64,000 nt of DNA, taken from contig CAVSIZ010000017.1 of assembly GCA_963728125.1 (NCBI GenBank), positions 15,923-79,922 on the forward strand, given 5' to 3'. Under the pieces are notes generated by a model. It was not told where the DNA came from and searched no databases. It was given only the letters and a program-made list of their open reading frames with translations. Position 1 is the stretch's first letter, and every line of letters begins with the position of its first letter. Positions 10,348-25,987 of this stretch are shown here, one piece after another. Origin of the DNA: an uncultured Actinomycetota bacterium (GTDB lineage: Bacteria > Actinomycetota > Actinomycetes > CAWDCV01). The position numbers and the translations under genes are program-made.

Positions 10348-11550
10348 CTATGCCTGCACGGCTCTGGACAGAACCGTCTCGAAACGACCTGCGATCCTAT
10401 CGATATCAAATGCCCACTCTGCGTAGCGGCGGGCATTCTCACCGTGGAAACAGCGCAGGCTCTCATCGGAGACGAGCTTCTCCGCGGCCGCCAAGAAGCC
10501 TTCCCGGTCGTCGGTGGCAACCACAACGCCGGCGTTCGCCTGGTCGAGCGTGCGCGCCGCCAGGTTCATGGGCGGGATGGCGGCGAGAATCGGTCGCCGC
10601 GCGCACAGGTAGCTGAGGACCTTGGACGGCACCGAGAACACGCCCGCGTCAGGTGACAGGAGAGCAATTAGCACATCGGCGGAACCGAAGACCTCGGGCA
10701 GCTGCTCGTACGGCTGGTAGGGCAGGACGTGCAGGTTGCCGACGCCGTGCTCGGCGACCTGCTCCTCGAGCCATTCCGCGCCCGCGCCCTCGGAGACGAC
10801 GACCACGCGTACGTCGCCTCGGGGCTCGAACCGGCGCGCGAGGTCGAGCAGCAGGCTGGGATCGTGCTTCAGGCCGAGGGTCCCGGCGTATAGCAGCACC
10901 GTGTCGCCGGAAAGGCCCGCAGCTCGTGACCACGGGTTGTCGTGCGGGTGCGGCGGCAGCTCGTCGAGTGGCGCCCAGTTCTCGATGACCTCACACTGCT
11001 CCGGCGGGATGCGCATCGAGCGCAGGACCGGGTCGAAGTCGTCCGTGATCGACACCACGGCAGCGGTTTGGCGAAGCAGCGACGACTCCAGCGCGCGAAG
11101 CCCCGTGCCGATGGTTGCGCCGACGCGCCCCAGCTTGTTGGTGGCGTACCGCGTCATCGCCACGCTGTACACGTCCTGCAGCCAGAACACCCACGGCGTG
11201 CGGCTGACACGACACCATGCTGCTGACACCGTCTTGGCGACGAGGGGATCGTTGGACGACAAGATCACGTCCGGCTGGTGCCTGCGCGCAGCGCGGACGA
11301 AGCGGGCGCCGTAGCGCAGCTCCTGCGGAATCCGGCGGTGAACCGTGTAGCGATTGAAGACGGTGTCGAGGCTGATCGACTCGAAGGACAGCGACGGCGG
11401 GTCGTCGTCCTGCCACGACAGCGCTCCCTTACCGCTTTGGTACGAGTCGCAGTGGACGTGGCAGACGTCGTGACCTCGCCGGGCAAGCGCTCGACTCAGC
11501 TGTGCCTGGAAGGGATGCCCGGAGAAGTCATGGACGAGAATCCGCATCAC
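10348..11550 (-). CDS. GT4 glycosyltransferase, WcaI/WbuB-like
   Basis: N-terminus MRILVHDFSGHPFQAQLSRALARRGHDV is typical of WcaI-like GT4 enzymes. C-terminal GT4 domain with an EX7E-type region. Confidence 0.8.
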   Translation of the reverse strand: MMRILVHDFSGHPFQAQLSRALARRGHDVCHVHCDSYQSGKGALSWQDDDPPSLSFESISLDTVFNRYTVHRRIPQELRYGARFVRAARRHQPDVILSSNDPLVAKTVSAAWCRVSRTPWVFWLQDVYSVAMTRYATNKLGRVGATIGTGLRALESSLLRQTAAVVSITDDFDPVLRSMRIPPEQCEVIENWAPLDELPPHPHDNPWSRAAGLSGDTVLLYAGTLGLKHDPSLLLDLARRFEPRGDVRVVVVSEGAGAEWLEEQVAEHGVGNLHVLPYQPYEQLPEVFGSADVLIALLSPDAGVFSVPSKVLSYLCARRPILAAIPPMNLAARTLDQANAGVVVATDDREGFLAAAEKLVSDESLRCFHGENARRYAEWAFDIDRIAGRFETVLSRAVQA

Positions 11551-13367
11551 TTCTCCGGCCGAGAGGACGACTCGGCCGTGGTGCGTTCGAGCTCGGGTGG
11601 CGCCTTTGCTGCCTTCCCCCCGTTGATCCCGTTGAGGCTCACCCGAGGAATGGCGACCTTGGCCGCCCCGATCTTCGGGCGGCTGTCCTCGTAGGGAGCA
11701 GCCACCGAGCGCGAGCTGACACCGTTCAGGACCGCGCCCAACATGGGCGCCCTGGCGTCCCTCAGCAGATCCATGGCCGCATTGATGTGCGATGTCCTGG
11801 TACGACCCGAACGCGCGACCAGCACCACGCCGTCCACCATCTGGGCGAGCAGGACGCCGTCGGACACAGGCAGCAGCGGTGGGCCGTCGATGATGAGGTA
11901 GTCGACCTCGCGCGCGAGGGTGTTGAGCACCTCCTGCATCGCCGATCCCGACAGCAGCGATGCCGGGTCGGCGACGGGTGGTCCCGCGGTCAGCACCGCC
12001 AGCGTGGGATACAGCGACTGCACCGCATCGCTGAGCGACGCGCTACCGGACAGCACCGAACTGAGGCCGATGTCATTGGAGATGCTGAAGACTTCGTACA
12101 GCCACGGCCGGCGTAGGTTGCCGTCGATGACGACGACGGTGCAATCGGCTGCCGCCAGCGTCACGGCGAGGTTCGCCGCCGTCATCGTCCGACCATCGCG
12201 GGCGTCGGCGCTGGCGATCAGCATCTCGCCCGTACCGCTCTCGCCCAAGGCGAGCTGGACGGACGTGCGTAGGCGGCGGAACGCCTCGACCGCTGTCGGC
12301 GAGCCGGGCAGCTCGGCCACGACGCCGGCGCCACGCTCCATTCCGCGAACGCGCGGCAGCATGCCAATCACCGGGACGCCGGACGCGGCCTCGAAGGACT
12401 GCTTGGAGACCAGCCGGTCGTCGAAGTGCTCGCGGACGAAGGCGATAACGAGTCCGAGCAGGAAACCAAGCCCTGCGCCGGCAACGGCGAAGCCGACGCG
12501 TCCGGGACCGCCCAATTTCTCCGGCTCCGACGCCGGCCCGAGCACCTGCACCCCGAACGTCGGGTTCACCGTCTGAGCCAGCCTGAGGAGGTCCAGCCGC
12601 TCGATCAGGGTGGTGCGCCGGCTGTTGAGGCTGTCCCGCTGCGTGATCAACTGCTGGCGCTGGTTCTCGAGGCCATTGCGGATCACGGAGTCGTACGTCA
12701 CTCCGATCTCCGCGTCGAACTCCGCGATCGGTGTCGCCAGCTCGTTGATCTGCGTGTCGATCGCGGCGATGTCGTTCTGTACCTGTGTGGTGCCGGCTGC
12801 CATCAGCGCTGCGAGCTGACCCTGCCGCAGCTGCACGTAGGTTTCCGCGTACGCCTGCGCGTCCTGCTGCACTTGCTCGGGGTTCTCGCCCTCGACCGTC
12901 AGGCGGCTCACCCGCGAATCGGGATCGGTTTCGATCGCGACCTCGACGTCGTGGCCCACCCGATTGCGGACCTCGGTCCGCACCGCTTCTGAGCCCATCA
13001 CGGCGACCTCGGTCGCGGTCTCGGACGCTCCCGCACCTTCGCCCCCGACCGCCAGGACGCTCGCGGGTGACGTCACCTGGGCGATCACTTCCGCGGTGGA
13101 GGTGTACGTGGCGGGAGTCATCCCACCGATCAGGATGCCGAGTGCCAGGCCGATCAGCGTCGGAATCGCGATGGCGAGCGGGCGGCGCCGGACCACCGAC
13201 AGGTAGTGCCGCAGCTCATACCCGTCGCGATCGGGGTCGACATCCGCCGCCCGCCGAACTCCTGAATCGGCAGTGGCGGGAACCGATGAGTCATTCATGC
13301 CGTCGTTGCCTCTCCCCCGACTCCCCGGAGTGTCCCCGAGAGGCCCCAGGAAGCGCGAACCCCTCAC
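11547..13367 (-). CDS. polysaccharide co-polymerase / Wzc-like protein (Wzz domain plus CpsD-like ATPase domain with degenerate Walker A)
   Basis: N-terminal TM and chain-length-determinant region with a coiled coil. C-terminal domain has Walker A' VVVIDGNLRRP and Walker B DYLIIDGPPLL. The Walker A position reads ASADARDGRTMTAANLA, with Lys replaced by Arg. No C-terminal tyrosine cluster. Confidence 0.65.
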   Translation of the reverse strand: MRGSRFLGPLGDTPGSRGRGNDGMNDSSVPATADSGVRRAADVDPDRDGYELRHYLSVVRRRPLAIAIPTLIGLALGILIGGMTPATYTSTAEVIAQVTSPASVLAVGGEGAGASETATEVAVMGSEAVRTEVRNRVGHDVEVAIETDPDSRVSRLTVEGENPEQVQQDAQAYAETYVQLRQGQLAALMAAGTTQVQNDIAAIDTQINELATPIAEFDAEIGVTYDSVIRNGLENQRQQLITQRDSLNSRRTTLIERLDLLRLAQTVNPTFGVQVLGPASEPEKLGGPGRVGFAVAGAGLGFLLGLVIAFVREHFDDRLVSKQSFEAASGVPVIGMLPRVRGMERGAGVVAELPGSPTAVEAFRRLRTSVQLALGESGTGEMLIASADARDGRTMTAANLAVTLAAADCTVVVIDGNLRRPWLYEVFSISNDIGLSSVLSGSASLSDAVQSLYPTLAVLTAGPPVADPASLLSGSAMQEVLNTLAREVDYLIIDGPPLLPVSDGVLLAQMVDGVVLVARSGRTRTSHINAAMDLLRDARAPMLGAVLNGVSSRSVAAPYEDSRPKIGAAKVAIPRVSLNGINGGKAAKAPPELERTTAESSSRPEK

Positions 13368-13669
13368 CCGTGCCGATCCGCGCCAGAGCCGACCTGCGCG
13401 GCGGCTCCGACATTCTCGGCGGACTTACGGTCCACCATGCCGGCAATAGCGGCCAGCGTCTCGAAGTTCTCCGGAACCAAGTCCTCGTCGTCGATCTCGA
13501 TGTCATATGTCGATTCGAGGAACGCGACAAGCTGGTGCATACCGAGCGAGTCGATGACACCACGCTCGAGCAGCGGGTAGTCGTCCGCGAGGTCCGCGCT
13601 GTCCCCCGGCCACGTGAACTCGGTGACAATGAGCTGGCGAACGCTCTCTCTGGTGCTGCCTACCGCCAT
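13364..13669 (-). CDS. acyl carrier protein (phosphopantetheine-binding)
   Basis: 101 aa. Motif LLERGVIDSLGMHQLVAFLE with the conserved DSLG serine. Acidic helix II-III. An AGGGGGA-like RBS lies upstream of the ATG at 13667-13669. Confidence 0.7.
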   Translation of the reverse strand: MAVGSTRESVRQLIVTEFTWPGDSADLADDYPLLERGVIDSLGMHQLVAFLESTYDIEIDDEDLVPENFETLAAIAGMVDRKSAENVGAAAQVGSGADRHG

Positions 13670-13677
13670 GGTTCCCC

Positions 13678-14619
13678 CTATGACATCCCCGCTGACGCTG
13701 ACATCCCCGCTGACGCGTTCAGCCGACTGCTGCCGACAACACTGTCGGTGCGCACGAGGGTATCGAGCCATGACGCCAAGGTGTCCACCGCAAGGCCCTG
13801 CGTCGACACCTCGTGCATTCCACCGAGCCGCGCGTCCACGACGCTTACGGTGAGCAGGTCGCCAGCCGAGTCGGCGATCTTGCCCATCGCACCGGCGCGG
13901 ACGCGCGCGAACTCCGGGTAGAAGTCGTCCGCGCTGCCGTACAGAAAGAGCACCGGGACGCCCCTGCGCAGCGCGGATTGCAGCGCCTCGAGGAACCCCG
14001 GGCTGGCCCCGCCCGGCGACCGCGGCGGACGCGAACCGGTCAGGATGCGGGTCAGCTTGCGCAGCAGGGCCCGGCGCACCTTTCCAGTGGCTTTCCAGGC
14101 GATCGCCACATTCTGCCGGCGCAGCGTTGCCGCCTTCTTGACGTACCACGACAGCGGCCGGCTGAGGATGGCTTCCTGATGGGTCACGTCGCTCACCGGG
14201 GGCGCGATCAGGGCGAGGCCGACGAGCCCATCGACCTGATCCGCAATGGCCATGCCGTTGCGCGCCCCCCAGCACTGGCCGATCATCGCGATCTGGCGAT
14301 GCCCCTGCGACTCCAGCCAGCGGATCGCGCCGAGCGCGTCGTCGGTCCACGGCTTGTCGAACTCGACCTCGCGCATGCTGCCGCTGCTCTCGGCCACGCC
14401 CTGATAGTTGACACGAAGGACCGAGAACCCGCGATCGGCAAGCTCCAGCGCCAACCGCCGGCGCATCTGGTTCTTGCCGAACGTCGGGTCGGTGCCACCG
14501 CCGGCGAGCAGGAGCACGCTCACCCCGTTCGGACGTCCCGACGGCTCGGTGAAGACGCCGAAGAGCTCTTCGGAGCCCGCCGGGAAGAACACCGGGGTGT
14601 TCATCACGGTCCTCCCCAC
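13678..14619 (-). CDS. alpha/beta-hydrolase fold protein with Cys nucleophile (GxCxG), paralog 1
   Basis: Nucleophile elbow MIGQCWGA. Putative acid GSADDF and His GGMHEV. C-terminal SAGMSASAGMS is encoded by an 18-bp tandem duplication. Confidence 0.6.
   Translation of the reverse strand: MGRTVMNTPVFFPAGSEELFGVFTEPSGRPNGVSVLLLAGGGTDPTFGKNQMRRRLALELADRGFSVLRVNYQGVAESSGSMREVEFDKPWTDDALGAIRWLESQGHRQIAMIGQCWGARNGMAIADQVDGLVGLALIAPPVSDVTHQEAILSRPLSWYVKKAATLRRQNVAIAWKATGKVRRALLRKLTRILTGSRPPRSPGGASPGFLEALQSALRRGVPVLFLYGSADDFYPEFARVRAGAMGKIADSAGDLLTVSVVDARLGGMHEVSTQGLAVDTLASWLDTLVRTDSVVGSSRLNASAGMSASAGMS
13681..13716. repeat. perfect 18-bp tandem duplication (TGACATCCCCGCTGACGC x2) at the 3' end of alpha/beta-hydrolase paralog 1
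   Basis: Read directly in the sequence. It encodes the C-terminal SAGMS-A-SAGMS and lies 11 nt upstream of the ACP start. Confidence 0.8.
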
Positions 14620-15521
14620 ATCAGGTGGGCTGTGTCAAGCGAATGTCCGGGACCGTACCCCAGATCTCTGGATACCAAGAAAGCGAAAAGGGCATGTCGC
14701 TCGCCAGCATCCGGGGAAATTCTGCCGAACTCGTGTGCGTCGCGTTCGGCGGATACGGCTGGGATTGTGCCAGCGCACGCTATTGCGCGGGCATACTGAA
14801 CGGCGCCGCTCGTCAACGAGACAGATACGTCGCGGCGGACATTCGGCTCGCAAGCGAATTGTTGGGCGGTCGACGAAATGTTCCGATACGCCACCTCGAC
14901 GCGAAGCCTCCCGCGCTCGACGTTGATGGTGGTGAGCGTGACGTCCCAGGTGCCGTCGTTCTTGATGGGGCGATCGACGACGTAGGTCCCTGGAGCGATG
15001 CGATCAGCCACGGTGCTCGCTGGCGAGGGGCTCGTCAACGACGCGCTGGTGGCTGGGCTGGCAGCTACCGAGGCGTCTCGCTCGGAGTCGTCTTGCGACG
15101 TGACGAGGAAGAACCCCGCGAGCAGGAAGCTCGCCACGACGAGGGCAACGACAAAGACCCGGCGACGCCGATGTTTGCGGCGCTGCGTGTTCCGTTCCGC
15201 TGCCTGCTCGTGCAATGCCTGACGTAGCTTCGCTTCACGTTCACCGGCGAGCCTGAGCTGCGCCTCGCGCGCGCGGGCCTGGTCTTCGCGAGCCTGATCC
15301 GGCTCCTTGGTGAGAACCCGGTAGGCCTCGTTCACCTGACGCAGGTGGCGCTCCGCCTCCTCGATGACCTTGGTGGGGGCGGATTGGTGCCGATCCGGAT
15401 GCAGCAGGTTGGCAAGGACGCGGTAGCGGTCACGGATCTCGGCCTGCGACGCCCCAGGCGCCACCCCGAGCACGGCGTAGGGATCGAAGCGTGGCTGGGG
15501 CATGGTGGGGATGCGTGCCAC
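14604..15521 (-). CDS. J-domain (DnaJ-like) single-pass membrane protein
   Basis: J domain DPYAVLGVAPGASQAEIRDRYRVLANLLHPDRH with an HPD motif. Charged coiled-coil linker. TM helix FVVALVVASFLLAGFFLV. Extracytoplasmic domain of about 160 aa. Confidence 0.65.
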   Translation of the reverse strand: MARIPTMPQPRFDPYAVLGVAPGASQAEIRDRYRVLANLLHPDRHQSAPTKVIEEAERHLRQVNEAYRVLTKEPDQAREDQARAREAQLRLAGEREAKLRQALHEQAAERNTQRRKHRRRRVFVVALVVASFLLAGFFLVTSQDDSERDASVAASPATSASLTSPSPASTVADRIAPGTYVVDRPIKNDGTWDVTLTTINVERGRLRVEVAYRNISSTAQQFACEPNVRRDVSVSLTSGAVQYARAIACAGTIPAVSAERDAHEFGRISPDAGERHALFAFLVSRDLGYGPGHSLDTAHLMWGGP

Positions 15522-15558
15522 TTACGACCGGGAGCTCGTCGGGATCCGGATGCGATCC

Positions 15559-16464
15559 TCAGCCGACTGCTCGCCCTCCCCGGCGGGAATGTCCAACGTG
15601 GCGAATCCACGCCAGCACCGTGCGCAGAAAGGTTTCCTGCACGGCGACCGAGCCGAGCCCGTCGAGGCGACCATCGACGACCTCGACGGCCACCTGCGCG
15701 GACCGCCGATCGATCGCGCGACCGAGCGCATCGTCGCGTGCCCGGTCGAACTGGGACGCGAAGTCGTCATCGAGTCCGTACAGGAACAGCACCGGCGTCC
15801 CCGAGTCGAGGACATGCTCGACCTGCGGGAGGAACCGTCGCGGCGGTGTGCCCGCCCGGCCGCGGCGGCCGAGCAGAACCCGCCGGAGCTTCCCCCTGAG
15901 CACAGCCCGGCGCCGCTTCGCCTTCTCGCCGCGGACGAGGAGCAGCAACGAGCGGGGCGACGTCAGCCGTCGCAAGTACCACGACAGCGGTGAATCGAGG
16001 ACCCCCTCGCGATGCCCTCCGTCGCCCAGCGGGCACGACACCAGGGCCAACCCGGCGAGCGCGCCTACCTGGGGAGCGGCGGCGAGCGCTGCGCGACCGC
16101 CGGCGCACAAGCCGATCACGACGATGCGCTGGAAGCCGCGGGACTCGAGCCAGCGCAGGGCGGCGACGGTGTCGTCGACCCACTCGTTGCCGATATCGGG
16201 GTCGCGGACCAGGCCGCCGCTCTCGCCGACGCCGGTGTAGCTGAAGCGCAGTGCGTGGAAGCCGCGCGCGGCCAGCTCGCGGGACAGCCGTACCCGGGCC
16301 TGGTTCTTCCCGAACGCCGGCACGCCCCCGCCGCCCCACAGGCTCAACACCGCGGCGCCGTTGGCGTTGCCGTTCGGGGCGGTGAGGATGCCGACCAGGT
16401 CCTCGTCAGTCACGTCCGTCGCCGGAATGACGACAGGCGTCTCATTGCTAGACGTGATGGTCAT
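15559..16464 (-). CDS. alpha/beta-hydrolase fold protein, paralog 2 (Cys elbow retained, His not evident)
   Basis: Elbow VIGLCAGG and acid GLDDDF. Clear paralog of 13678-14619. Start ATG at 16462-16464 overlaps the stop of paralog 3 (ATGA). Confidence 0.55.
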   Translation of the reverse strand: MTITSSNETPVVIPATDVTDEDLVGILTAPNGNANGAAVLSLWGGGGVPAFGKNQARVRLSRELAARGFHALRFSYTGVGESGGLVRDPDIGNEWVDDTVAALRWLESRGFQRIVVIGLCAGGRAALAAAPQVGALAGLALVSCPLGDGGHREGVLDSPLSWYLRRLTSPRSLLLLVRGEKAKRRRAVLRGKLRRVLLGRRGRAGTPPRRFLPQVEHVLDSGTPVLFLYGLDDDFASQFDRARDDALGRAIDRRSAQVAVEVVDGRLDGLGSVAVQETFLRTVLAWIRHVGHSRRGGRAVG

Positions 16465-17345
16465 CGACCGGTTCCCGAACCGTTGAGGCGACTCGCCAAC
16501 CACGTCGCTACCTGCTCATTCAACTCCGGATGCAGGACGACCTTCGGTCCGGACCGGAACCACCAGCTCTCCTCGACGTCGACGATGCTGGTGTCGACGG
16601 ACGCACCATTCGCGCGTAGCCGTTCGACGATGGCCCGGTGATCGGGACGGAGCTCACGGCCTTGGAACTGCACGAGCAGGACATCGCCAGAGATGTCATC
16701 GAACTCGGCCAGGGCATCGTGCTCGATCACGCTGTCGTACAGGGAGGCATGGATGACATTGCCGACTACATCAGCCCAGCCCTGAGCAGAGAGCACGTCC
16801 TGCAGCTTCTGTTTCTTGCCGACGGCACTGTCGCTTGCGGTGAGGGCACTCATCGCCCGACTGCGCCATGCCTCGCGAAAGTACCGACGAAAGTCCGTGA
16901 CCGGCTCGACGAGCACCATGGGGGGGCGTTCGTCTGCCCGCGCCCGGGCCGCAGAGGCGGCCGCTAGCGCACCCCAGCGCATGCCGACGAAGCCCATGGG
17001 AACGTCGCCGGCAGAGGCAGCGAGCAGCTGCGTTGCCCACGCGGCGTCGTCCTCGAGGGTCCGCAGGGTCATCTGGCCCGGGTCGCCGTCGCTATCTCCC
17101 ATGCCGGACGGGTGATAGCGCAACGTCATCAGCCCGGCCTCGGAGAGCCGGCGCGCGAGGTAGACCTCGCGTTGATAGTTGGAGACGAAGTCGGCCAGCA
17201 CCGACGAGAAGAGCGCGACGGCGCCCACCGCGGTGCTGCGCGGTTCATGGAGACACGTGAAGAGCGAGACGTCGTCGTCGCGTGCGACGAAGGCAATGCG
17301 TTCGCGCGTGCCAGAGGTGCGATCCGTACGCACACAGTCAGGCAT
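16461..17345 (-). CDS. alpha/beta-hydrolase fold protein, paralog 3 (nucleophile position Cys replaced by Arg)
   Basis: Elbow reads FVGMRWGA instead of GxCxG. Start likely at MPDCVRTD; the ORF could extend to 17417. Confidence 0.5.
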   Translation of the reverse strand: MPDCVRTDRTSGTRERIAFVARDDDVSLFTCLHEPRSTAVGAVALFSSVLADFVSNYQREVYLARRLSEAGLMTLRYHPSGMGDSDGDPGQMTLRTLEDDAAWATQLLAASAGDVPMGFVGMRWGALAAASAARARADERPPMVLVEPVTDFRRYFREAWRSRAMSALTASDSAVGKKQKLQDVLSAQGWADVVGNVIHASLYDSVIEHDALAEFDDISGDVLLVQFQGRELRPDHRAIVERLRANGASVDTSIVDVEESWWFRSGPKVVLHPELNEQVATWLASRLNGSGTGR

Positions 17346-17478
17346 AACCCCCCCTGCAGTTGGTGCACCGTAACCGACACACGGGGGCTCTGCCCCCCGT
17401 GTTCCCCCCGACCCCAAAACCTACCCACGGCTGGTTGCCCCACGTAGGGAATCGGGCCTGCGATAGCCTCAATTCGGG
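17346..17478. promoter_or_regulatory. divergent intergenic region between alpha/beta-hydrolase paralog 3 (-) and DAHP synthase (+), containing a 9-bp-stem hairpin at about 17379-17402
   Basis: Perfect inverted repeat ACACGGGGG / CCCCCGTGT with a short loop. GGGGAGGGGAAG RBS-like stretch lies before the DAHPS start. Confidence 0.3.
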
Positions 17479-18303
17479 TTGGGGAGGGGAAGCCTAGTGA
17501 GCCCGAAATTGATCGAGCACGCTCAGGCACGCGTCGAAGTCGGGGGAATTGCGCTGGGGAGCGCCCACCCGATCCGCGTGATCGCCGGACCGTGCTCCGT
17601 GGAGAGCTTGGAGCAATTCCGCACGACGGCGCAGGCCGTGCACGCGGCCGGCGCTGTACTGCTGCGTGGCGGCGCATTCAAACCGCGAACCTCGCCGTAC
17701 AGCTTTCAGGGGCTCGGCGTCCGCGGCCTGGAGATCATGCGCGAGGTGGCGGACGAGCTCGGGATGGGCGTCGCCACCGAGGCCATGTCGGCGGAGGAGG
17801 TGGTCCTCGTCGCGCGCTACGCCGACATGGTGCAGATCGGCGCGCGAAACATGGACAATCGGCCGCTGCTCGAGGCCGCTGCCGCATCGGGACGACCGAT
17901 CCTGTTGAAGCGAGGAATCACCGCCACCGTCGAGGAAGTCCTCACGGCGGCGGAATACATCGTGGTCCGCGGCAACGACCAGGTAGTGATCTGCGAGCGC
18001 GGCAGTCGGACATTCGAACCGTCCACCAGGAACAGTCTCGACATCGCTGCGGTGTCCGAGCTGAAACTGCGCAGCGACCTGCCGGTCATCGTCGATCCTT
18101 CTCATGGCACCGGTGTTCGCGACCTGGTCGCGCCGGTCGCTCTCGCCGGCATCGCCGCTGGCGCCGACGGCGTGATGGTCGAGGTACATCCGCAGCCCGA
18201 TGCCGCGCTGTCCGATGGCTTCCAGTCCCTCGAGGCGGCCACCTTCCCTGCCTTCATGAGTCGCGTGCGAGCGATGGCGATGGCCATGGGGAGGGCGGTG
18301 TAG
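17479..18303 (+). CDS. 3-deoxy-7-phosphoheptulonate (DAHP) synthase, class I beta (AroG/AroA-type, no chorismate-mutase domain)
   Basis: All catalytic and metal motifs present: [37 protein letters not shown] and MVEVHPQPD. Confidence 0.85.
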
Positions 18304-19941
18304 GTGGCCGCTGCGGCCCCCAACGTGCTGCTGCTCGATCCCGAAGCCACGGAGTCCGAGCTCGCGTCCGTCCTGTCGGCCGCCGGGAGTGCGGTGTCCG
18401 GTCCCCAGGTGACACGTGGGGACGGGTGGGCCGCGATGCCCCTGCTGGGCGACGGAATGCGGTCGGTGGACACCGACCAGTTCGCCGAGCTGCCACCGGT
18501 ACGCCGACTCGTGCAGGTCACGTCGCCGTACCGACTGGCCAGTCGGGAGCTGTTCGACCGCGACGTGGCGGTTCAGGTTCCGCTCCGCGATGACGAGACG
18601 GAATTGTCGGCGGGTCCCGCCTTCGGCGGCCGGTCAGCGCTCGGCATCATCGCGAGCTCCCGCTGGGCGTCGGCGAGCGAGACGCGGCTACAGCATCTCG
18701 CGCCCATGCTGCGTGCGGCCGGCTGCAGCGTCTACCACGCCGGTCGGTTGACGCCCGGGTACGAACGCGCGGGCTCGGGCAGCCTCACCATCGATGCGCT
18801 GCGCCGGCTACGTGAGATCGCCCATGACAGCGACCTGGCGGTCTGCGTCGAGGTGGTGGAGGCGAGCCAGATCGCGTCCGCCGTCGAGCTCGCGGACGTT
18901 TTGCAGGTCGGCAGCGGCAACATGCAGGACTTCAGCCTGCTGCGCGAGATCGGCCGTACGAAGCGGCCAATCATCCTGCGCCGCGGGGTGAGCGCCACGG
19001 TCGAAGAGTTCCTGCTCGCCGCCGAGTACGTCCTCGTGCACGGGAACGGGAAGGTGATCCTCTGCGAGTCGGGGATCCGCACCTTCGCGGCCCTGCAACG
19101 TCCTCGGTTCGAAATCAACGCCATCCCGCTGATCCAGAGCCTGAGCCACCTGCCTCTTATCGCCGACCCGTCGCAGACCGCGCTGCATGCCACCGCAGTC
19201 CCCGCGATGGCGCGCGCCGCGATCGCCGCTGGGGCCGACGGGCTCGTGCTCGAAGTCGGCACGGAGGCGGGGCACGACGCCGAGGGTGCAGCCATCGACC
19301 TGGACAGCATGCGCCGGCTGATGTCGGAGCTTCGACCCATCGCTCGAGCAGTCGGGCGGACCTTCACCGGACGGGGCGTCGATGATTCGTCCCCGCCGTC
19401 CGACGCCATGACCGTCCTGGAACGCACCGACTGCTCCCTGGCCGAGAACATTGAGTCCTACACCGATATGCCCCCACGCCTGGACGTGGTTGGGCAATGG
19501 CGGCTGGTGCCACCCGTACCGTGGTTGAGCCCGCCGCTCGCGCGGGACAGCGAGATCCTCGCGCGCTGCACGAGCTACCTCATGGGGTCGGTGCGGCTGG
19601 CTTGCATGCTGTCGTACGTCGACCTCGGCCGCATCGACTCCACCCTGGCCTCCCTGCTCGAGACCGAGCAGGTGAGTCTCGGCCAGCTGTTCGTGGACCC
19701 GCGGATCGAGCAGCTCGACTACGAGTTCGGGTACAGCGACGCGGAGGGTCCGCTCGACGAGGCCCTGCGGCGGTTCCTGCCCGACGAGCTGCCAATCCTT
19801 TCCCCATATGTATGGCGCAGGTACGAAGCGACCACCCACGGCCAGGTCGCCTTCGTGGTCATCGAGATGCTCCCCATATCGGTGTGGCAGTACCTGCTGA
19901 CCTCGACCCCCGCACCGCCAGTCCGGGAAGGAACAGCCTGA
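18304..19941 (+). CDS. DAHP-synthase-like pseudo-enzyme domain fused to N- and C-terminal domains of unknown function
   Basis: Residues about 100-340 align with the upstream DAHPS (KRPIILRRGVSATVEEFLLAAEYVLVHGNGKVILCESGIRTF versus [42 protein letters not shown]). Catalytic motifs are replaced: GPCS to ASSR, KPRTS to GRLTP, IGARN to VGSGN, DPSH to DPSQ, and EVH to EVG. A C-terminal extension of about 200 aa follows. Start immediately follows the upstream stop. Confidence 0.6.
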   Translation: MAAAAPNVLLLDPEATESELASVLSAAGSAVSGPQVTRGDGWAAMPLLGDGMRSVDTDQFAELPPVRRLVQVTSPYRLASRELFDRDVAVQVPLRDDETELSAGPAFGGRSALGIIASSRWASASETRLQHLAPMLRAAGCSVYHAGRLTPGYERAGSGSLTIDALRRLREIAHDSDLAVCVEVVEASQIASAVELADVLQVGSGNMQDFSLLREIGRTKRPIILRRGVSATVEEFLLAAEYVLVHGNGKVILCESGIRTFAALQRPRFEINAIPLIQSLSHLPLIADPSQTALHATAVPAMARAAIAAGADGLVLEVGTEAGHDAEGAAIDLDSMRRLMSELRPIARAVGRTFTGRGVDDSSPPSDAMTVLERTDCSLAENIESYTDMPPRLDVVGQWRLVPPVPWLSPPLARDSEILARCTSYLMGSVRLACMLSYVDLGRIDSTLASLLETEQVSLGQLFVDPRIEQLDYEFGYSDAEGPLDEALRRFLPDELPILSPYVWRRYEATTHGQVAFVVIEMLPISVWQYLLTSTPAPPVREGTA

Positions 19942-21501
19942 TGACCGACATGCCTCCCGCGTCGGAGAACGGCTCCCGCCTTTACAACGCCGCCGTCGAT
20001 CTGCTCGGACGCAACGCCACCGTGGACCGCCCGTACCTGCTGGCGTCGCAGCGGACATGGAGCTATCCCGAGGTGATTGCGGCCGCCGATGCTGCCGGTG
20101 CGGGTCTGCTCGACCTCGGGCTGGAACCCGGTGACCGGGTCATCCTCACGACGCGGGACCGGCCGGAGTTCGTCATCTCGTTCTGGGGCGCCATCAAGGC
20201 AGGGCTCGTGCCGGTGCCGGTCGCGCCGATGCTGACGGCGGCCGACCTGCACTTCATCCTCACCGACAGCGAGGCTCGGGCGCTGGTCTGCGACGGCTCG
20301 TCGTGTCGCTGCCGCCCAGGTCGCCGCGGACGGCACGGCGGCGACCTGCCTCATGGCCGGCGACGACCCGCCGGCGGGAGTCCGCTCCTGGTCCGACGTG
20401 TGCGCCAAACCGGCGTCGCTCGACGTGGCCCCAACGACTGGCGACGACATCGTGCTGTGGCTGTACACGTCCGGGACGACCGGGTTGCCCAAGGCCACGA
20501 TGCACCGGCATCGCAGCATGCAGGCGGTCAGCGATGGCATGCCGCATCAGATCCTGAAGATGAACGAGGACGATGTCGTGCTGTCGGTGTCGCGGATGTT
20601 CTTCGCGTACGGCCTCGGCAACTCGGTGTACGTGCCGGCCATCTTCGGGTCGTCGGTCATCGTGCGGGAGAACCCCGGCGTACCGGCGATGGTGCAGAAC
20701 CTGTTGAAGAAGACTGAGCCGACGCTGCTGTTCGGCGTGCCGGCGTTCTACCGCGGGTTTGTCGGCCTCGCGAATCCGCAGTTGCCGGCGTCGGTGCGCG
20801 CTGCGGTCAGCGCCGGCGAGGCGCTCGACGTCGAGCTGTTCGAGCGCTTCCGCGCGGCGTTCGGCATTCCTCTGATCGATGCCCTCGGTTCGACCGAGGC
20901 GCTGCACTTCGTCACCTCGAACCGGCCGGACGACGTGGTCCCGGGCAGCGCTGGGCGACCGATGGACGGCTTCCGCATCGAGGCGCGTGATCGCGACGGC
21001 AGGTCCCTGCCCGAAGGCGAGAGCGGCGAGCTGTGGATCAACGGCCCGACGACGTTCGCGGGATACTGGCGTCGCCCAGAGCTCACCGAGCGCGCGTACG
21101 AGGGCTCGTGGATGCGTACCGGCGACCGGGTACGGATCGTCGACGGCCGGCTGTACCACGAGGGTCGCCTCGACGACATGGTCAAGCTCGGCGGGATCTG
21201 GGTCGCCCCGGCCGAGATCGAGGACGTACTGCGCAGCCATGCCGACGTCAGCGACGCGGCCGTCGTGGCGATCGACGACGGGTCGGGCGTGCCCGTGCTC
21301 AAGGCGTACGTGGTGTCGGAGCAGGGTGGTCCCGAGCTGGCGCAGGTGCTGCTGCGCCTGTGCCGCAGCCGGCTCGCCGGGTTCAAGGTGCCGCAGTCGT
21401 ACGACTTCCTCGACGAGTTGCCGCGAACGCCCTCCGGCAAGGTCCGGCGCTTCCTGCTGCGCGACCAGGCCACCGCATCCGCAGGAGCCGCGCGCACCTA
21501 G
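19941..21501 (+). CDS. aryl-CoA ligase (benzoate / 4-hydroxybenzoate-CoA ligase family, AMP-binding), apparent frameshift near 20296
   Basis: N-terminal MTDMPPASENGSRLYNAAVDLLGRN...RDRPEFVISFWGAIKAGLVPVPV in one frame. The remainder (AMP-binding motif LYTSGTTGLPKATMHRH, hinge DDMVKLGGIWVAPAEIE, and C-terminal PRTPSGKVRRFLLRDQ) is in the +1 frame. ATGA overlap with the upstream gene. Confidence 0.7.
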
Positions 21502-22316
21502 TCGCCGGCGCGGGCGCCCTGGGCGGCCGACGCCCGGACGGGCTGGGCCTGACTGGCGAGCCAGGCGCGCCACGACGAGCTGTCGATGTCCGGGCCGACC
21601 GCTACGTGAGCGCCGACCCAGGCACTCACGTAGCGAATGCCGTGCAGCGCGTTCACGATCCACACGGTCCGGCCCGCGAACTCGTCCAGCCGGCAGCAGA
21701 CCTCGCGTACCTCGATCCCACACTCGCGCGCGTGCTGCTGGAGCAGCCGCGTAGTGACGCCCGACAGCGTCGGCAGCGACGACGACGGCAGGCACAACGC
21801 GCCATCCGCCCACCACAGCAGGTTGGACGTCGCCGTCTCCACTACGTGACCAGACGTGCTCCGCAACAGGACATCATCGGCGCCCGCTGCGGCAGCCGCC
21901 TGCCGCCAGTCAGCGAGCACGCCGAGATCGGGACCCTTCCGCCGGGGGACGCGGCGCGGATCCACCGAGTCCGAGACCCGCACGCGGGCCTGCTGGAAGC
22001 GCGGTGGCGCCGACCGCAGGCGCAGCGCCAGCCGACCGCGCGGACGGCTCGCGAGCTCTACCCGCGGGAACCACGTTCCCGTGGACGGCAGCTGGTCGAC
22101 GGCGGCCGCCCAGAACGCCGCCACCGTGGCAGCCGACACGCCGCCGACCTCGGCACATGCCGTGGCAAAGCGCGCTGCATGCAGGTCGAGTCCGCGCACC
22201 GCCCCGTCGTGGAGCAACCACGAGTCAGCAGCGAGCAGCGGCGCATGCGCCGATTCCTGCTCAGGGGCGCTCATGAGGCCAGCAGCCTCGGACCACACGA
22301 GCAGCGAATCAGCCAA
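21498..22316 (-). CDS. class IV aminotransferase-fold protein, aminodeoxychorismate lyase (PabC)-like
   Basis: 272 aa, matching the length of fold-type IV PLP enzymes. ETATSNLL motif. Start overlaps the end of the PabAB gene. Confidence 0.6.
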   Translation of the reverse strand: MADSLLVWSEAAGLMSAPEQESAHAPLLAADSWLLHDGAVRGLDLHAARFATACAEVGGVSAATVAAFWAAAVDQLPSTGTWFPRVELASRPRGRLALRLRSAPPRFQQARVRVSDSVDPRRVPRRKGPDLGVLADWRQAAAAAGADDVLLRSTSGHVVETATSNLLWWADGALCLPSSSLPTLSGVTTRLLQQHARECGIEVREVCCRLDEFAGRTVWIVNALHGIRYVSAWVGAHVAVGPDIDSSSWRAWLASQAQPVRASAAQGARAGD

Positions 22317-24399
22317 GACGCGAAGCCTGCTGTTCGCGTCCGGGGAATGTCGCGCCGAGCAGGCGCAGCAACGGCGCGGCCTTGACCGCGGTCTCCTCGA
22401 ACTCTTCGGCCGGATCGGATAGGGCGACGATCGCGCCGCCGACGCCGTACGTCACCCGCTCCGGCTCGACCACGGTCGTCCTGATCACGATGCTCAGGTC
22501 AGCGGCACCGGACAGCGAGAAGTACCCGATGGCACCGGAGTAGACCCCGCGCGGCCCCGCCTCGAGCGAGTCGATGATCTTCATGGTGCGGATCTTCGGC
22601 GCTCCGGTCATCGAGCCGCCGGGGAACGCCGCGCGCACGCACGCCACCGCCGACGTGTCAGAGCGCAGCGTCGACTGAACGGTGCTCACCAGCTGGTGAA
22701 CGGTCGCGTACGTCTCTACATCGAACAGCTTCGGCACCCGCACCGTGCCGATCTCGGCCGTACGTCCGAGGTCGTTGCGCACCAGGTCGACGATCATCAG
22801 ATTTTCTGAGCGATCCTTTTCGCTCGCGACCAGGTCGTGCCGGAGCAGCTCGTCGGCTTGCGTGGTCTTCCCCCGCGGCCGAGTGCCCTTGATCGGTTTG
22901 GACTCCACCACGGCATCCCTGCCGACGCGCAGGAAGCGCTCGGGCGACGTACTGAGTACCGAGAACCAGCCGCAGCGCAGCAGCGCGCCGAACGGTGTCG
23001 GGTTGACCGCTCGCAGCGCCCGGTAGCTCCGCCACGGGTCGACGGTGCCGCGGGCCTCGATCATGTTGGTGAGGCAGACCTCGTAGGTCTCCCCCGCGAC
23101 GATGGCCTCGTTGCAAGCATCGATCAGCTTCAGGTACTGCTCGCGGTCATGTCGGATGTGGACGTCGGGAAGCGCGGGCAAGTCTTCGGCCGGCGCGGGC
23201 AGCTGACCGACGAGAGAGGTCAGCACCTCCGCCGTGTCGCGCAGCCAGGAACGGGCGGCTTCGTCGTCATCGCCTGAGAGGGCCAGCAGGTACGTCGTCC
23301 ACGACCCGTGATCGAACACGACGGCGCGGTCCGCGAACAGCATCATCGCGTCAGGCTGAGGGGACGTGTGGACGCGATCGCCGCCGCACTCGGACTTGAG
23401 CTCGTAGCCGAGATAGCCCACCCAGCCAAGAGCGAAGTCGAAGGGAAGGCTTGGTACGTCCACATCCAAGCCGCGCAGGTCACGGTCGAGCCAGTCGAGG
23501 AACTCGCTCTGGATGACGTCACCTCCATCCGAGCCCTGCACCGTGACTATGCCCCGCTGGGTGTCAGCGACCACCGTCCGTGCCAGCGGCCCGTCGGCGC
23601 AGCCCATCACCGAATAGCGACCGATGCCGTGGTCCTGCCGACTGCTGTCCAACCAGAACGAAACGTCGCGGTCGCCGAACAGCCTCGCGAAGACGACCTC
23701 GTCGTCCCAGCGCGTCTGCAGCGTCTCGACGTGCACCCGCAGCCGGGTCCGCGACTCCTGCTTCTCCACCCGTGCTGGCGAGGTCGCGGGCTCGGTCCGG
23801 GCGGTCGCCCGCGTCCGGCCCTGATGGCTCCTTGTGAGGTCAGCGAAGTTCGCGAGCAGCCGATGTCCATGCTCGGTGCTGATCGATTCGGGATGGAATT
23901 GCACGCCCCACAGCGGCCGCTGCCGATGCCGCAGCCCCATCAGCACGCCGTCCGGGGTCCAGGCGATGGGTTCGAGATCGTCAGGGAGGTCGGTAGCTGC
24001 TAGCGAGTGATAGCGCACCGCTTCGAATGGCGAGGGCAACCCGGCGAACACGTCGACCTGCTTGTGCAGGACCGGAGATACGCGGCCGTGCCGCGGCTCG
24101 GGGGCCCGACCCACGACACCGCCGAGCAGGTGGGCGATGGCCTGGTGACCGAGGCAGACACCAAGCACCGGCAGGTCGCCCTGCTCGATGATCTCCCGGC
24201 ATAGCCCGATGTCACTGGCGCGCGCTGGCGTTCCCGGGCCGGGCGAGATCACCACGTTGTCGAAGCTGTCGAGCCAGTCGAGTCGCCACGCCGGATCGTC
24301 GTTGCTGATGACCTCCGGCGGGGTCTCGTTCACCTCAGCCAAGTAGTGGAACAGGTTGTACGTGAACGAGTCGTAGTTGTCGACGAGAAGCGTGCGCAT
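22309..24399 (-). CDS. pabAB: aminodeoxychorismate synthase, fused glutamine amidotransferase (PabA) and component I (PabB)
   Basis: N-terminal GATase (MRTLLVDNYDSFTYNLFHYL, GVCLGHQAI with catalytic Cys). C-terminal chorismate-binding domain (KPIKGTRPRGKT, AAFPGGSMTGAPKIRTMKIID, GVYSGAIGYF). Start overlaps the stop of the upstream phosphotransferase (TGATG). Confidence 0.85.
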   Translation of the reverse strand: MRTLLVDNYDSFTYNLFHYLAEVNETPPEVISNDDPAWRLDWLDSFDNVVISPGPGTPARASDIGLCREIIEQGDLPVLGVCLGHQAIAHLLGGVVGRAPEPRHGRVSPVLHKQVDVFAGLPSPFEAVRYHSLAATDLPDDLEPIAWTPDGVLMGLRHRQRPLWGVQFHPESISTEHGHRLLANFADLTRSHQGRTRATARTEPATSPARVEKQESRTRLRVHVETLQTRWDDEVVFARLFGDRDVSFWLDSSRQDHGIGRYSVMGCADGPLARTVVADTQRGIVTVQGSDGGDVIQSEFLDWLDRDLRGLDVDVPSLPFDFALGWVGYLGYELKSECGGDRVHTSPQPDAMMLFADRAVVFDHGSWTTYLLALSGDDDEAARSWLRDTAEVLTSLVGQLPAPAEDLPALPDVHIRHDREQYLKLIDACNEAIVAGETYEVCLTNMIEARGTVDPWRSYRALRAVNPTPFGALLRCGWFSVLSTSPERFLRVGRDAVVESKPIKGTRPRGKTTQADELLRHDLVASEKDRSENLMIVDLVRNDLGRTAEIGTVRVPKLFDVETYATVHQLVSTVQSTLRSDTSAVACVRAAFPGGSMTGAPKIRTMKIIDSLEAGPRGVYSGAIGYFSLSGAADLSIVIRTTVVEPERVTYGVGGAIVALSDPAEEFEETAVKAAPLLRLLGATFPGREQQASRLG

Positions 24400-25853
24400 C
24401 AGTGCGCCCCGACGCCGCGGATGACGGCGCGCCCGGTCTTCCACAAGATGTGCAGGTCGAGCGGCAGCGACCAGTTCTCGACGTACCGCAGGTCGATGAG
24501 CACCGAGTCCTCCCACGACAGGCTGGCCCGGCCACTCACCTGCCACAGACCCGTGAGCCCCGGCTTCACCAGCAACCGCCGTCGTACGTCGTCGCCGTAC
24601 TGCGCGACCTCGCAGGGCAGCGGCGGGCGCGGGCCCACGAGCGACATCTGGCCCAGCAACACGTTGACCAGCTGCGGCAGCTCATCCAGTGACCAGCGGC
24701 GCAGGAACCGCCCAACCGGCGTGATGCGCGGATCGTGGCGCATCTTGAAGAGCACGCCGTCGTGATCGTTGCGATCGAGGAGGTAGTCCCGCTGGCGCTC
24801 CGCACCGACGACCATCGTGCGGAACTTGTAGATGGTGAACGTTCGGGAGTTGATGCCGACCCGGGTCTGCCGGAACAGCGGTGGGCCGCCGTCGGCCAGC
24901 CAGATCCAGCACCCGATCGCCACCATCACCGGGGCCAGCAGGACAAGCCCCACGGCCGCAACCGACCGGTCGTAGACGGCCTTGGTGACCTTGCCCGCTC
25001 CGGACAGCCGCGGGCGCTCGACGTGCAGGAGCGGGAGTCCAGCGACCGGTCGAACCGTGATGCGCGGTCCCGCGACCTCGATCAGTCCCGATCCGACGAC
25101 CAGGTCTGTCTCGGATGTCTCGAGCGACCAGGCGAGACGGCGCAGTGCAGCGCCGGACAGTTCCGCGTTGGACAGCACCGCGACCGTATCCGCGTGGACG
25201 TCGCGCACGGCTTGGGCAACCGTGCTGAAGGTCCCGACGACCGGAACGCTGGGATCGAGATCGGTGGGCCGCTCGGCGTTCTCCGGCAGACACACGCCGG
25301 CGACAGACAAGCCGTGCGCCTTCTCCCGGCGCAGCTGCCGAACGCAGTCGGACACCGCCCACGGCGCGCCCACCACGATGGTGCGATGCACGCACTGCCC
25401 GGCTCGGCGTTGCCGCCGCAGCCGGATTCGTAGTGCCCAGCGAGCAAGCAGGTCGAGAACGATGACGAGTGGGATCGCGACCAGGACGTAGCCACGCGCG
25501 ATCTCGGCGTCGGTCGCGTACGAGACGAACGCCACCACGGCCATGAGCGCCACGCCGGCGTGGAGCACGCGACGCAACTCCTCGGTGCCGACGCCCATGT
25601 ATCGCCGCTCGTACGCCCGATTCGCGGCGACGATGGCCACCCACACCAGGGGAAAGAGCGCCGATCCGATGAGGTACGCCGGCTGCAGCGGGGCATCGCC
25701 GGATCTCGATGACAGCGCGACGATCGCGGCAATGCCCGCAACGACCGCATCAGCCGCGACCGCGTTCGCGATGTAGGAGACCTGCCAGTCGCGGGTGTCG
25801 GCATCGGCAGGGGACGTGGCCACGCTCGAGTCAGGCAGGCCGAGGATCGACAT
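24399..25853 (-). CDS. polyprenyl-phosphate sugar phosphotransferase (WbaP/CpsE-like initiating glycosylphosphotransferase), copy 1
   Basis: Five N-terminal TM helices. C-terminal catalytic domain RTFTIYKFRTM...HDPRITPVGRFLRRWSLDELPQL...GQMSLVGPRP...KPGLTGLWQV. Confidence 0.85.
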   Translation of the reverse strand: MSILGLPDSSVATSPADADTRDWQVSYIANAVAADAVVAGIAAIVALSSRSGDAPLQPAYLIGSALFPLVWVAIVAANRAYERRYMGVGTEELRRVLHAGVALMAVVAFVSYATDAEIARGYVLVAIPLVIVLDLLARWALRIRLRRQRRAGQCVHRTIVVGAPWAVSDCVRQLRREKAHGLSVAGVCLPENAERPTDLDPSVPVVGTFSTVAQAVRDVHADTVAVLSNAELSGAALRRLAWSLETSETDLVVGSGLIEVAGPRITVRPVAGLPLLHVERPRLSGAGKVTKAVYDRSVAAVGLVLLAPVMVAIGCWIWLADGGPPLFRQTRVGINSRTFTIYKFRTMVVGAERQRDYLLDRNDHDGVLFKMRHDPRITPVGRFLRRWSLDELPQLVNVLLGQMSLVGPRPPLPCEVAQYGDDVRRRLLVKPGLTGLWQVSGRASLSWEDSVLIDLRYVENWSLPLDLHILWKTGRAVIRGVGAH

Positions 25854-25987
25854 GACCCCATCCCCCCACGACGTGGCCTCTCCCCCCGAAGAAGCTTGCC
25901 CGGCGTTGGCTTGCCCAGGGCCAACGTGATGTCTGAATTCAAGCAGATGTGCCGCTCGGACCAGTGGGCGGCCGGTTGCGGCGCGTC

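Follow-up and report, generated by a model that had tools for sequence, protein, structure and literature searches.

Introduction

DAHP synthase (3-deoxy-7-phosphoheptulonate synthase, DAHPS) is a textbook case of allostery by modules bolted onto a catalytic barrel. The described forms of this control comprise fused ferredoxin-like/ACT domains, fused chorismate mutase domains, extensions of the barrel and a non-covalent chorismate mutase partner (PMC5526877, PMC8408635). In the Thermotoga maritima enzyme, the ferredoxin-like domain binds Tyr/Phe and gates the active site (PMC5526877). In the N- or C-terminal fusions of chorismate mutase to DAHPS in Listeria, Bacillus/Geobacillus (5j6f), Prevotella and Porphyromonas, and in the non-covalent complex of Mycobacterium tuberculosis, a chorismate-binding module is joined to the DAHPS scaffold and the first step is tied to the chorismate branch point (PMC5526877, PMC8408635). 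Here we analyse a stretch of 64,000 nucleotides from an uncultured Actinomycetota bacterium (assembly GCA_963728125.1, contig CAVSIZ010000017.1, positions 15,923 to 79,922; the whole stretch is called the window below), in which a bare and apparently live DAHPS, encoded by open reading frame (ORF) 1, is directly followed by ORF2, a decorated paralog with an apparently dead DAHPS barrel and a chorismate-lyase-like domain at its C-terminus.

Inactive homologs that are conserved, and that are thought or known to confer regulation, occur in other enzyme families, as HisZ does with the short form of the ATP-phosphoribosyltransferase HisG and the prozyme with trypanosomatid AdoMetDC. There, as in our case, a catalytic subunit without a regulatory domain is encoded together with an inactive homolog. 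A further system that resembles part of the locus is found in mycobacteria, where Rv2949c and FadD22 are neighbours in the synthesis of 4-hydroxybenzoate-derived glycolipids (10.1101/2020.02.20.950329) and a chorismate lyase adjoins a 4-hydroxybenzoate-type adenylating enzyme with carrier function. The ORF2 family was not described in the literature found by full-text searches on DAHPS–chorismate lyase fusions, DAHPS pseudoenzymes, inactive DAH7PS and DAHPS/chorismate pyruvate-lyase clusters.

ORF1 and the decayed barrel of ORF2

The genes and domains on which the analysis centres are the following.

17479..18303, + strand: ORF1, undecorated type Iβ DAHP synthase (Pfam and NCBIfam scores, full motif set)
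18304-19941, + strand: ORF2, three-domain DAHPS paralog
18322..18519, + strand: ORF2 residues ~7-72, ferredoxin-like (ACT-like) domain of the T. maritima DAHPS type (profile, alignment, model)
18613..19359, + strand: ORF2 residues ~104-352, DAHPS (β/α)8 barrel with decayed active site (PF00793, E 4e-32)
19402..19908, + strand: ORF2 residues ~367-535, chorismate pyruvate-lyase-like domain (UbiC / Rv2949c / UTRA fold) with Arg421 and Glu521 as putative catalytic pair
19941..21501, + strand: benzoate-CoA-ligase-family adenylating enzyme, whose ATG overlaps the TGA of ORF2 (Pfam AMP-binding in two frames)

ORF1 had been taken in a preliminary description of the locus for a canonical type Iβ DAHPS with every metal and phosphoenolpyruvate (PEP) ligand, and this is borne out. 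It scores 256 bits against Pfam DAHP_synth_1 (PF00793) and lies above the NCBIfam cut-offs for 3-deoxy-7-phosphoheptulonate synthase (NF006421, 375 against 335 bits; TIGR01361, 346 against 268 bits). Its motif set is complete (GPCS, KPRTS, IGARN, LKRG, CERG, DPSH, EVH and SDG), which includes the full set of metal ligands (C, H, E and D) and of ligands for PEP as well as erythrose 4-phosphate (E4P) (K, R, K and R). No regulatory domain is present on ORF1, and among solved structures the undecorated A. pernix enzyme 1vs1 comes closest to it (297 bits). The likelier start is the GTG at 17497, preceded by GGGGAGGGG, and the same start is called for the identical gene in a closely related locus, L017. 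The third-position G+C of ORF1 (0.82) and ORF2 (0.86) has the values expected for real genes, with both ORFs sharing one frame in a window of 64-71% G+C.

ORF2 starts with a GTG immediately after the TAG stop of ORF1 and comprises a ferredoxin-like domain, a DAHPS (β/α)8 barrel without the metal and PEP/E4P ligands, and a C-terminal domain of 190 aa. It therefore does abut ORF1 and carry a homologous TIM barrel, as first reported: this barrel is 35% identical to ORF1 across 233 aa (E 1e-32), and the T. maritima DAHPS (1rzm/1vr6) aligns end to end with ORF2 residues 8-351 in phmmer, N-terminal domain included (E 6e-48). ORF2 stays under the NCBIfam DAHPS cut-offs (NF006421, 223 against 335 bits; TIGR01361, 181 against 268; NF009239, 175 against 279). 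The changes at the former active site are listed below.

Cys of GPCS: Arg120 (ASSR)
Lys/Arg of KPRTS: Thr150/Gly152 (KPRTS to TPGYE)
Arg of GARN: Gly205 (GARN to GSGN)
Lys of LKRG: Arg226 (LKRG to LRRG)
Arg of CERG: Ser256 (CERG to CESG)
His of DPSH: Gln291 (DPSH to DPSQ)
His of EVH: Gly319 (EVH to EVG)
Asp of SDG: Ala326 or Glu327, depending on the alignment

The preliminary description held that every catalytic signature of ORF2 is replaced. The losses that it named, namely the Cys, the KPRTS Lys, the IGARN Arg, the DPSH His and the EVH His, are precisely as it gave them, and three independent alignments agree that seven of the eight catalytic positions are changed; the metal-ligand Glu (E317), however, remains as the sole catalytic ligand. 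Two other explanations of these differences were considered and rejected. An offset alignment masking the catalytic residues does not fit the agreement of the three alignments, and the residues are truly lost, the positions being variable over ~108 homologs. Membership in the KDO8P synthase (KDO8PS) or NeuB families does not fit the barrel scores, which are 181-223 bits with DAHPS models against 44 with KDO8PS and 17-25 with NeuB/PseI, nor the Foldseek search with the ORF2 model, in which T. maritima DAHPS (E 1e-28) is far ahead of KDO8PS (E 1e-14). The AlphaFold2 (AF2) model of full-length ORF2 has a mean predicted local distance difference test (pLDDT) of 88.6 and a predicted TM score (pTM) of 0.81, and the former KPRTS loop is low (pLDDT 61). 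Homologs of ORF2 are currently named '3-deoxy-7-phosphoheptulonate synthase' or 'N-acetylneuraminate synthase family protein' in the databases.

A search of 5.8 billion protein clusters with ORF2 gave 1125 matches, and none of the 120 best contained GPCS or KPRTS. The best homologs include ~80 full-length proteins (520-570 aa, down to 36% identity) and ~28 forms of ~345 aa without the C-terminal domain, and the variability of the active site was assessed on 80 long and 28 short members (n=108). The former Cys position (120) is occupied by R/A/V/Q/P/G/S, with Arg at this formerly metal-binding position in 59 of the 80 long members; the former KPRTS loop (β2-α2) has no consensus and varies in both sequence and length. 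Position 205 carries R/A/G/K/P, the GARN Arg being present in most long and about a third of the short members and absent from the ORF2 of the window, and position 291 (the His of DPSH) carries Q/H/L/R/A/T/S. The Arg of CERG is Ser in 100 of the 108 homologs, and this is the only fixed change among the former active-site positions. Near-invariant stretches of the barrel are MQDFxLLRE, VEEFLLAAEY, HGNG, CESGIRTF, PRFEINAxP, HLP and AAGADG.

Ratios of non-synonymous to synonymous substitution rates (dN/dS), calculated pairwise by the Nei-Gojobori method on eight ortholog pairs, were 0.10-0.19 for ORF1, 0.19-0.30 for the dead barrel, 0.20-0.37 for the ferredoxin-like domain, 0.15-0.36 for the lyase domain and 0.15-0.30 for the ligase, values that are rough because dS is high (0.5-1.3). 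The dead barrel is thus under purifying selection while its former active-site positions are free to vary. The low dN/dS together with the variable pocket indicates a maintained protein, which is therefore neither a pseudogene nor, on present evidence, a new enzyme in the old pocket. A decaying pseudogene was rejected on account of dN/dS values well below 1 and intact copies in more than 80 clusters, and a gene-fusion artefact was rejected as well, because many independent assemblies contain the fused form and there are split forms as well. On the residues lost, the DAHPS chemistry of the ORF2 barrel is apparently gone and the protein is maintained. Within the loci examined, ORF2 thus combines the features of a pseudoenzyme subunit, namely an inactive paralog, purifying selection and constant pairing with an active partner.

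Terminal domains of ORF2

The N-terminal extension of about 100 aa noticed earlier is real, and profile, alignment and model together give it an identity. Positions 3-336 of NF006421, the NCBIfam model for DAHPS with a ferredoxin-like domain, are matched by ORF2 residues 9-353, and the phmmer alignment to 1rzm/1vr6 begins at chain residue 2. The match of the N-terminus to PF18152 is weak (E 0.003) and under the cut-off. In the AF2 model, residues 7-71 fold as β-α-β-β-α-β (E7-11, H17-28, E43-47, H58-61, E66-71), and Foldseek superposes the ORF2 model on 1rzm_A with a TM score of 0.81 over 350 columns, with KDO8PS far behind. These comparisons identify the extension as the ferredoxin-like regulatory domain already known from DAHPS of the T. 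maritima type. Over its first 354 residues, ORF2 accordingly has the layout of the T. maritima-type enzymes (1rzm, 1vr6 and 3pg9), with a ferredoxin-like domain, a linker and a (β/α)8 barrel. Unlike them, ORF2 lacks the metal ligands Cys, His and Asp and the four PEP-binding Lys/Arg, scores below the family cut-offs, bears an additional domain at its C-terminus and has a live catalytic subunit encoded separately next to it.

The C-terminal extension is real as well and comprises ~190 aa. Pfam and NCBIfam gave no match to it, either alone or for 15 family members (Pfam E ≤ 10); phmmer against PDB sequences gave nothing significant, and a word-indexed search with the profile of the domain found close relatives only, with no bridge to known families. 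The family profile, by contrast, matches 2nwi by sequence (E 0.0012), and an exhaustive HMMER search with it recovered 71 proteins at E ≤ 0.001 among 1.84 billion representatives, the weakest of which (E 6e-7 to 5e-4) pass Pfam PF01947, 'Chorismate pyruvate-lyase Rv2949c-like'. In a MAFFT alignment of the C-terminal family with PF01947 proteins and Escherichia coli UbiC (from NC_000913.3), Arg421 and Glu521 of ORF2 share columns with Arg76 and Glu155 of UbiC, which we take to be its carboxylate- and hydroxyl-binding catalytic residues. The three family alignments (A1-A3) show no variation at Arg421 and Glu521, nor in two motifs, LG and W-R-R. The domain has the chorismate lyase/UTRA fold. ORF2 does not have the make-up of a UTRA regulator of the GntR/HutC kind, in which the UTRA fold is combined with an N-terminal winged-helix DNA-binding domain.

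From these sequence comparisons, the C-terminal domain is a divergent member of the chorismate-lyase superfamily whose site looks intact; it looks like a working chorismate lyase, and such an activity is predicted. ORF2 as a whole is thus probably not the pure pseudo-enzyme for which it had been taken, since its lyase-like module keeps the catalytic Arg and Glu of UbiC. Compared with UbiC (E. coli, 1fw9) and the Rv2949c-like DUF98 proteins (PF01947, 2nwi), no ORF2-type domain reaches the Pfam threshold, the ORF2-type family is small and separate (71 representatives) and has an inserted helical segment, and its module is fused to a pseudo-DAHPS or a ligase.

The lyase module is mobile between genes. 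It is found alone, as a separate gene of ~185 aa, in locus L006 (41% identity) and in the majority of the 71 representatives; joined to the dead barrel, which is the form in the window; or fused to a ligase, as in the metagenome protein P0203 (709 aa), a natural fusion of the lyase-like module with an AMP-binding ligase. Another metagenome protein, P0071 (890 aa), combines DAHPS-like with AMP-binding Pfam domains in a single product and may be a gene-call artefact.

The conserved cassette and its neighbourhood

The order live DAHPS, dead paralog, lyase module and ligase was found in 16 of the 16 non-redundant loci examined, 13 of which were reached from ORF2 or the lyase domain and three sampled from the ORF1 side (long contigs). 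The live DAHPS of the 13 loci is 68-82% identical to ORF1, with the five motifs in each complete copy, and the ligase lies immediately downstream in every locus of the comparison. Seen from the ORF1 side, at least 40 of its 120 best homologs (all ≥71% identity, 250-310 aa) are on a contig of identical size to one with an ORF2 homolog. The junctions within the cassette, TAG/GTG between ORF1 and ORF2 and TGATG between ORF2 and the ligase, indicate translational coupling. Where the lyase module is split off (L006, L021), the dead barrel is present as a separate gene of ~345 aa. All the named source records of the cassette are uncultured metagenome-assembled genomes (MAGs) of Actinomycetes, Acidothermales or Actinomycetota; a scan of genome collections contributed nine species representatives only, and the taxonomic breadth comes mostly from metagenome contigs.

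Intact orthologs of the ligase (L001, L006) score 409 and 423 bits on TIGR02262, above its cut-off of 375, and resemble FadD22 (270-285 bits on the FadD22 model) and 3-hydroxybenzoate-CoA ligase. Compared with its otherwise near-identical ortholog in L017, an intact 519-aa ORF, the ligase gene of the window has an extra T near 20304 (GTCG[T]GTCG), which splits it between two frames. The same insertion is present in L018, and the site is outside any homopolymer. The insertion could be a real frameshift and inactivation or an error of long-read assembly. Some contigs of long-read MAGs show only a series of short ORFs where ORF2 or the ligase should lie (L020, 5807-8015; L021, 6895-9018); indel errors therefore seem to be common in these assemblies, which bears on the frameshift in the window.

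The other genes around the cassette are listed below.

13291..13629, - strand: small carrier-protein-like ORF with a GLLDS-type Ser motif (tblastn)
13678-14619, 15559-16503 and 16461-17417, - strand: three α/β-hydrolase-like genes (Pfam) of the divergent operon 13678..17417
14604-15521, - strand: DnaJ-domain protein (Pfam) in the same operon
21498-22316, - strand: PabC (Aminotran_4, E 7e-29), 272 aa
22309-24546, - strand: PabAB, a fused PabA-PabB of 745 aa (GATase and Chorismate_bind; TIGR00553, 382 bits, cut-off 328)

The carrier-like ORF has no Pfam match in the window. By tblastn it matches proteins of 85-98 aa that lie beside the cassette in L003, L004, L006, L008, L011, L013 and L015, and the homolog in L003 has a weak match to PF00550 PP-binding (E 0.005). 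This small GLLDS protein is the likely acceptor of the activated acid. The arrangement recalls that of Rv2949c and FadD22, but the window-type ligase falls far short of the 1228 bits that are the cut-off of the FadD22 equivalog, and it lacks a fused carrier domain, a small carrier being encoded separately nearby. In addition, the cassette of the window has no Pks15/1-type synthase, and mycobacteria have no counterpart of the DAHPS pair.

PabC and PabAB overlap and form a unit convergent on the cassette, with PabAB set off from ORF2 by the ligase gene and the PabC gene. This unit occurs beside the cassette only in the closest relatives (L017, L018 and L020) and is missing near the cassette in L001, L003, L004, L006, L019 and L021. 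It is a complete p-aminobenzoate unit and probably not part of the cassette. The preliminary description had offered PabAB as a possible downstream partner to which ORF2 would hand its product; this is not supported, because PabAB is on the opposite strand in a convergent unit, has its own PabC and is absent in most related loci, the coupled partner being the benzoate-CoA-ligase-family enzyme.

Pairs of the hydrolase genes are again found next to the cassette in L003, L004, L008, L011, L013 and L017-L020, and further neighbours in other loci are an FAD-dependent halogenase/monooxygenase-like gene, a DUF3179 protein of 600 aa and PKD/GSDH proteins. The recurrent carrier, hydrolase and other neighbours suggest a larger unknown biosynthetic cluster. 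Genes of exopolysaccharide type flank the region at 11547-13367 (- strand) and 24399-28353 (- strand). The products of the flanking genes are a Wzz/ParA-like protein of the chain-length or tyrosine-kinase-like kind, a priming sugar transferase (Bac_transf) and sulfate adenylyltransferase subunits resembling CysN/CysD. A cell-surface polymer is a possible destination of the aryl acid.

Proposed working of the cassette and rival explanations

With moderate confidence, we read ORF2 as lying amid a coupled cassette for aryl-acid supply, in which its lyase domain and the ligase act and its dead barrel partners or regulates ORF1. ORF1 would raise the carbon flow into the shikimate pathway, and the lyase domain of ORF2 would convert chorismate to 4-hydroxybenzoate or a close analogue. 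The ligase would then adenylate the aryl acid and pass it to CoA or, probably, to the carrier protein, following the logic of Rv2949c and FadD22. The family assignments thus suggest that the cassette most likely makes and activates 4-hydroxybenzoate; from them we infer the lyase activity, the lyase substrate and the loading of the carrier.

The dead barrel needs an explanation of its own, since loci with a separate lyase gene retain it too. Presumably no longer binding metal, PEP or E4P, it is most likely kept for an assembly like that of a DAHPS subunit, with ORF2 probably forming a hetero-oligomer with ORF1. Such a hetero-oligomer would set the ferredoxin-like domain and the lyase domain, which would bind chorismate or 4-hydroxybenzoate, beside the active site of ORF1, so that end products could throttle a pathway-specific DAHPS and the start of the route would be linked to its end. 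A regulatory or scaffolding role toward the live DAHPS, as already put forward in the preliminary description, appears to be the best reading of the barrel, since it is of DAHPS type, has lost its catalytic residues, is constantly paired with a live DAHPS and is under purifying selection.

The partnership with ORF1 is thought likely for three reasons. ORF1 has no regulatory domain and ORF2 comes with a pair of ligand-binding modules; the two genes show translational coupling and are never apart in the loci seen; and the PRFEINA segment aligns with a tetramer-interface residue of the P. furiosus (Pfu) DAH7PS. Specifically, Ile271 of ORF2, in the near-invariant PRFEINA, aligns with Ile181 of the Pfu enzyme (4grs alignment, with numbering counted by hand), the residue that is changed in 4c1l, an 'I181D interface mutant' according to its PDB title. 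In this way we infer the complex of ORF1 and ORF2 and its regulatory effect. We also entertain, more tentatively, that the dead barrel is an obligate 'prozyme'-like regulatory subunit in a hetero-oligomer with the undecorated live DAHPS, and that by way of its ferredoxin-like and chorismate-lyase domains it lets chorismate, 4-hydroxybenzoate or aromatic amino acids control how much enters the shikimate pathway. In comparison with HisZ/HisG and the prozyme, the complex of our case is predicted from genes alone, and ORF2 also has a probably active enzyme domain. In comparison with the DAHPS–chorismate mutase systems, the module of ORF2 is chorismate pyruvate-lyase-like (UbiC/UTRA fold) instead of an AroQ mutase, and it sits on a dead barrel; any catalytic effect would therefore be exerted in trans on the separate DAHPS subunit.

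Several points weigh against this picture. The lyase domain is too divergent for Pfam, and its conserved Arg and Glu would be expected equally if it merely sensed chorismate or 4-hydroxybenzoate. The acid used by the ligase is a prediction from family resemblance, and the ligase frame is broken in the window; the cassette may thus not be fully functional in this strain, unless the extra base is an assembly error. The interface argument consists of one mapped residue together with a conservation that could be due to folding or homo-oligomerisation, and the selection estimates are rough, as given above.

The rival that survives best, which we consider unlikely, is that ORF2 alone is a chorismate lyase on a relic DAHPS scaffold that serves homo-oligomerisation or solubility, with ORF1 as an independent and unregulated DAHPS and the adjacency reflecting a shared pathway. 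A dedicated DAHPS is common in biosynthetic clusters, PhzC being an example (PMC8772962), the lyase Arg and Glu are conserved, and the model of the full-length ORF2 monomer is compact and confident (pTM 0.81). However, the barrel persists as a separate gene of ~345 aa (L006, L021) and is thus kept on its own account rather than as an adjunct of the lyase; conversely, standalone modules of ~185 aa are the commonest form, so that the lyase does not need the scaffold. The pairing with the ORF1 clade in each locus examined and the translational coupling of the genes also speak for the partnership and against an independent ORF1.

Less probable still is that ORF2 is wholly non-catalytic, its lyase-like domain being a UTRA-type sensor and the whole protein a regulatory subunit of ORF1, with the acid for the ligase coming from elsewhere. 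The profile matches point to PF01947 members and not to GntR regulators, the UbiC catalytic Arg and Glu are invariant in A1-A3, the fusion of the module with a ligase in P0203 suggests a product-to-substrate relation, the cassette requires some supplier of aryl acid, and no other aryl-acid-forming enzyme recurs in the cassette in the loci examined. These observations stand against the missing Pfam chorismate-lyase match and against the precedent of the Listeria/Bacillus DAHPS, whose chorismate-mutase-like domain keeps its site and acts mainly as a sensor (PMC5526877, PMC8408635).

It is highly improbable that the barrel, instead of being dead, was re-purposed for a new reaction. Its strong conservation (dN/dS ~0.2), the polar residues that persist at the C-terminal face of the barrel (E255, D288, E317, R227 and N206) and the Arg in place of the metal-binding Cys in 59 of the 80 long members would suit a neofunctionalised enzyme, but the old-site positions 120, 205 and 291 and the β2-α2 loop are not fixed, this loop has low model confidence, and the ORF2 of the window lacks the Arg205 kept by most members. 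We give the least credence to ORF2 working with or feeding PabAB, e.g. as a 4-amino-4-deoxychorismate lyase making p-aminobenzoate for the ligase: PabAB does lie 2.4 kb downstream in the window and its closest relatives, the elimination of pyruvate from aminodeoxychorismate is conceivable for a UbiC-like fold and the benzoate-CoA ligase family includes aminobenzoate ligases, but PabAB runs on the other strand, where it overlaps a canonical PabC (Aminotran_4), so that the p-aminobenzoate route is already complete, and neither gene is beside the cassette in the six loci named above.

Implications

All the components of the cassette are from known superfamilies, and the decoration of DAHPS with chorismate-binding modules is already established. 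The novelty lies in the pairing of a live, bare DAHPS with a paralog that is dead and decorated, and in the use of a chorismate-lyase module. The analysis corrects the database names of the ORF2 homologs, and the C-terminal domain of ORF2 represents a small unannotated branch of the chorismate-lyase superfamily. The proteins of the cassette are small and soluble-looking, and the hypotheses on them are directly testable.

If the proposed partnership of ORF2 with ORF1 is true, regulation or assembly in trans through a pseudoenzyme would be a different solution for DAHPS, and it would be the first pseudoenzyme-mediated allosteric control in trans in this family. It would also be the first case of a chorismate lyase module as a sensor or partner of DAHPS, and the lyase would join the list of modules that have been recruited to this enzyme. 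For the uncultured soil Actinomycetota in which the cassette recurs, it would probably serve to make a 4-hydroxybenzoyl building block.

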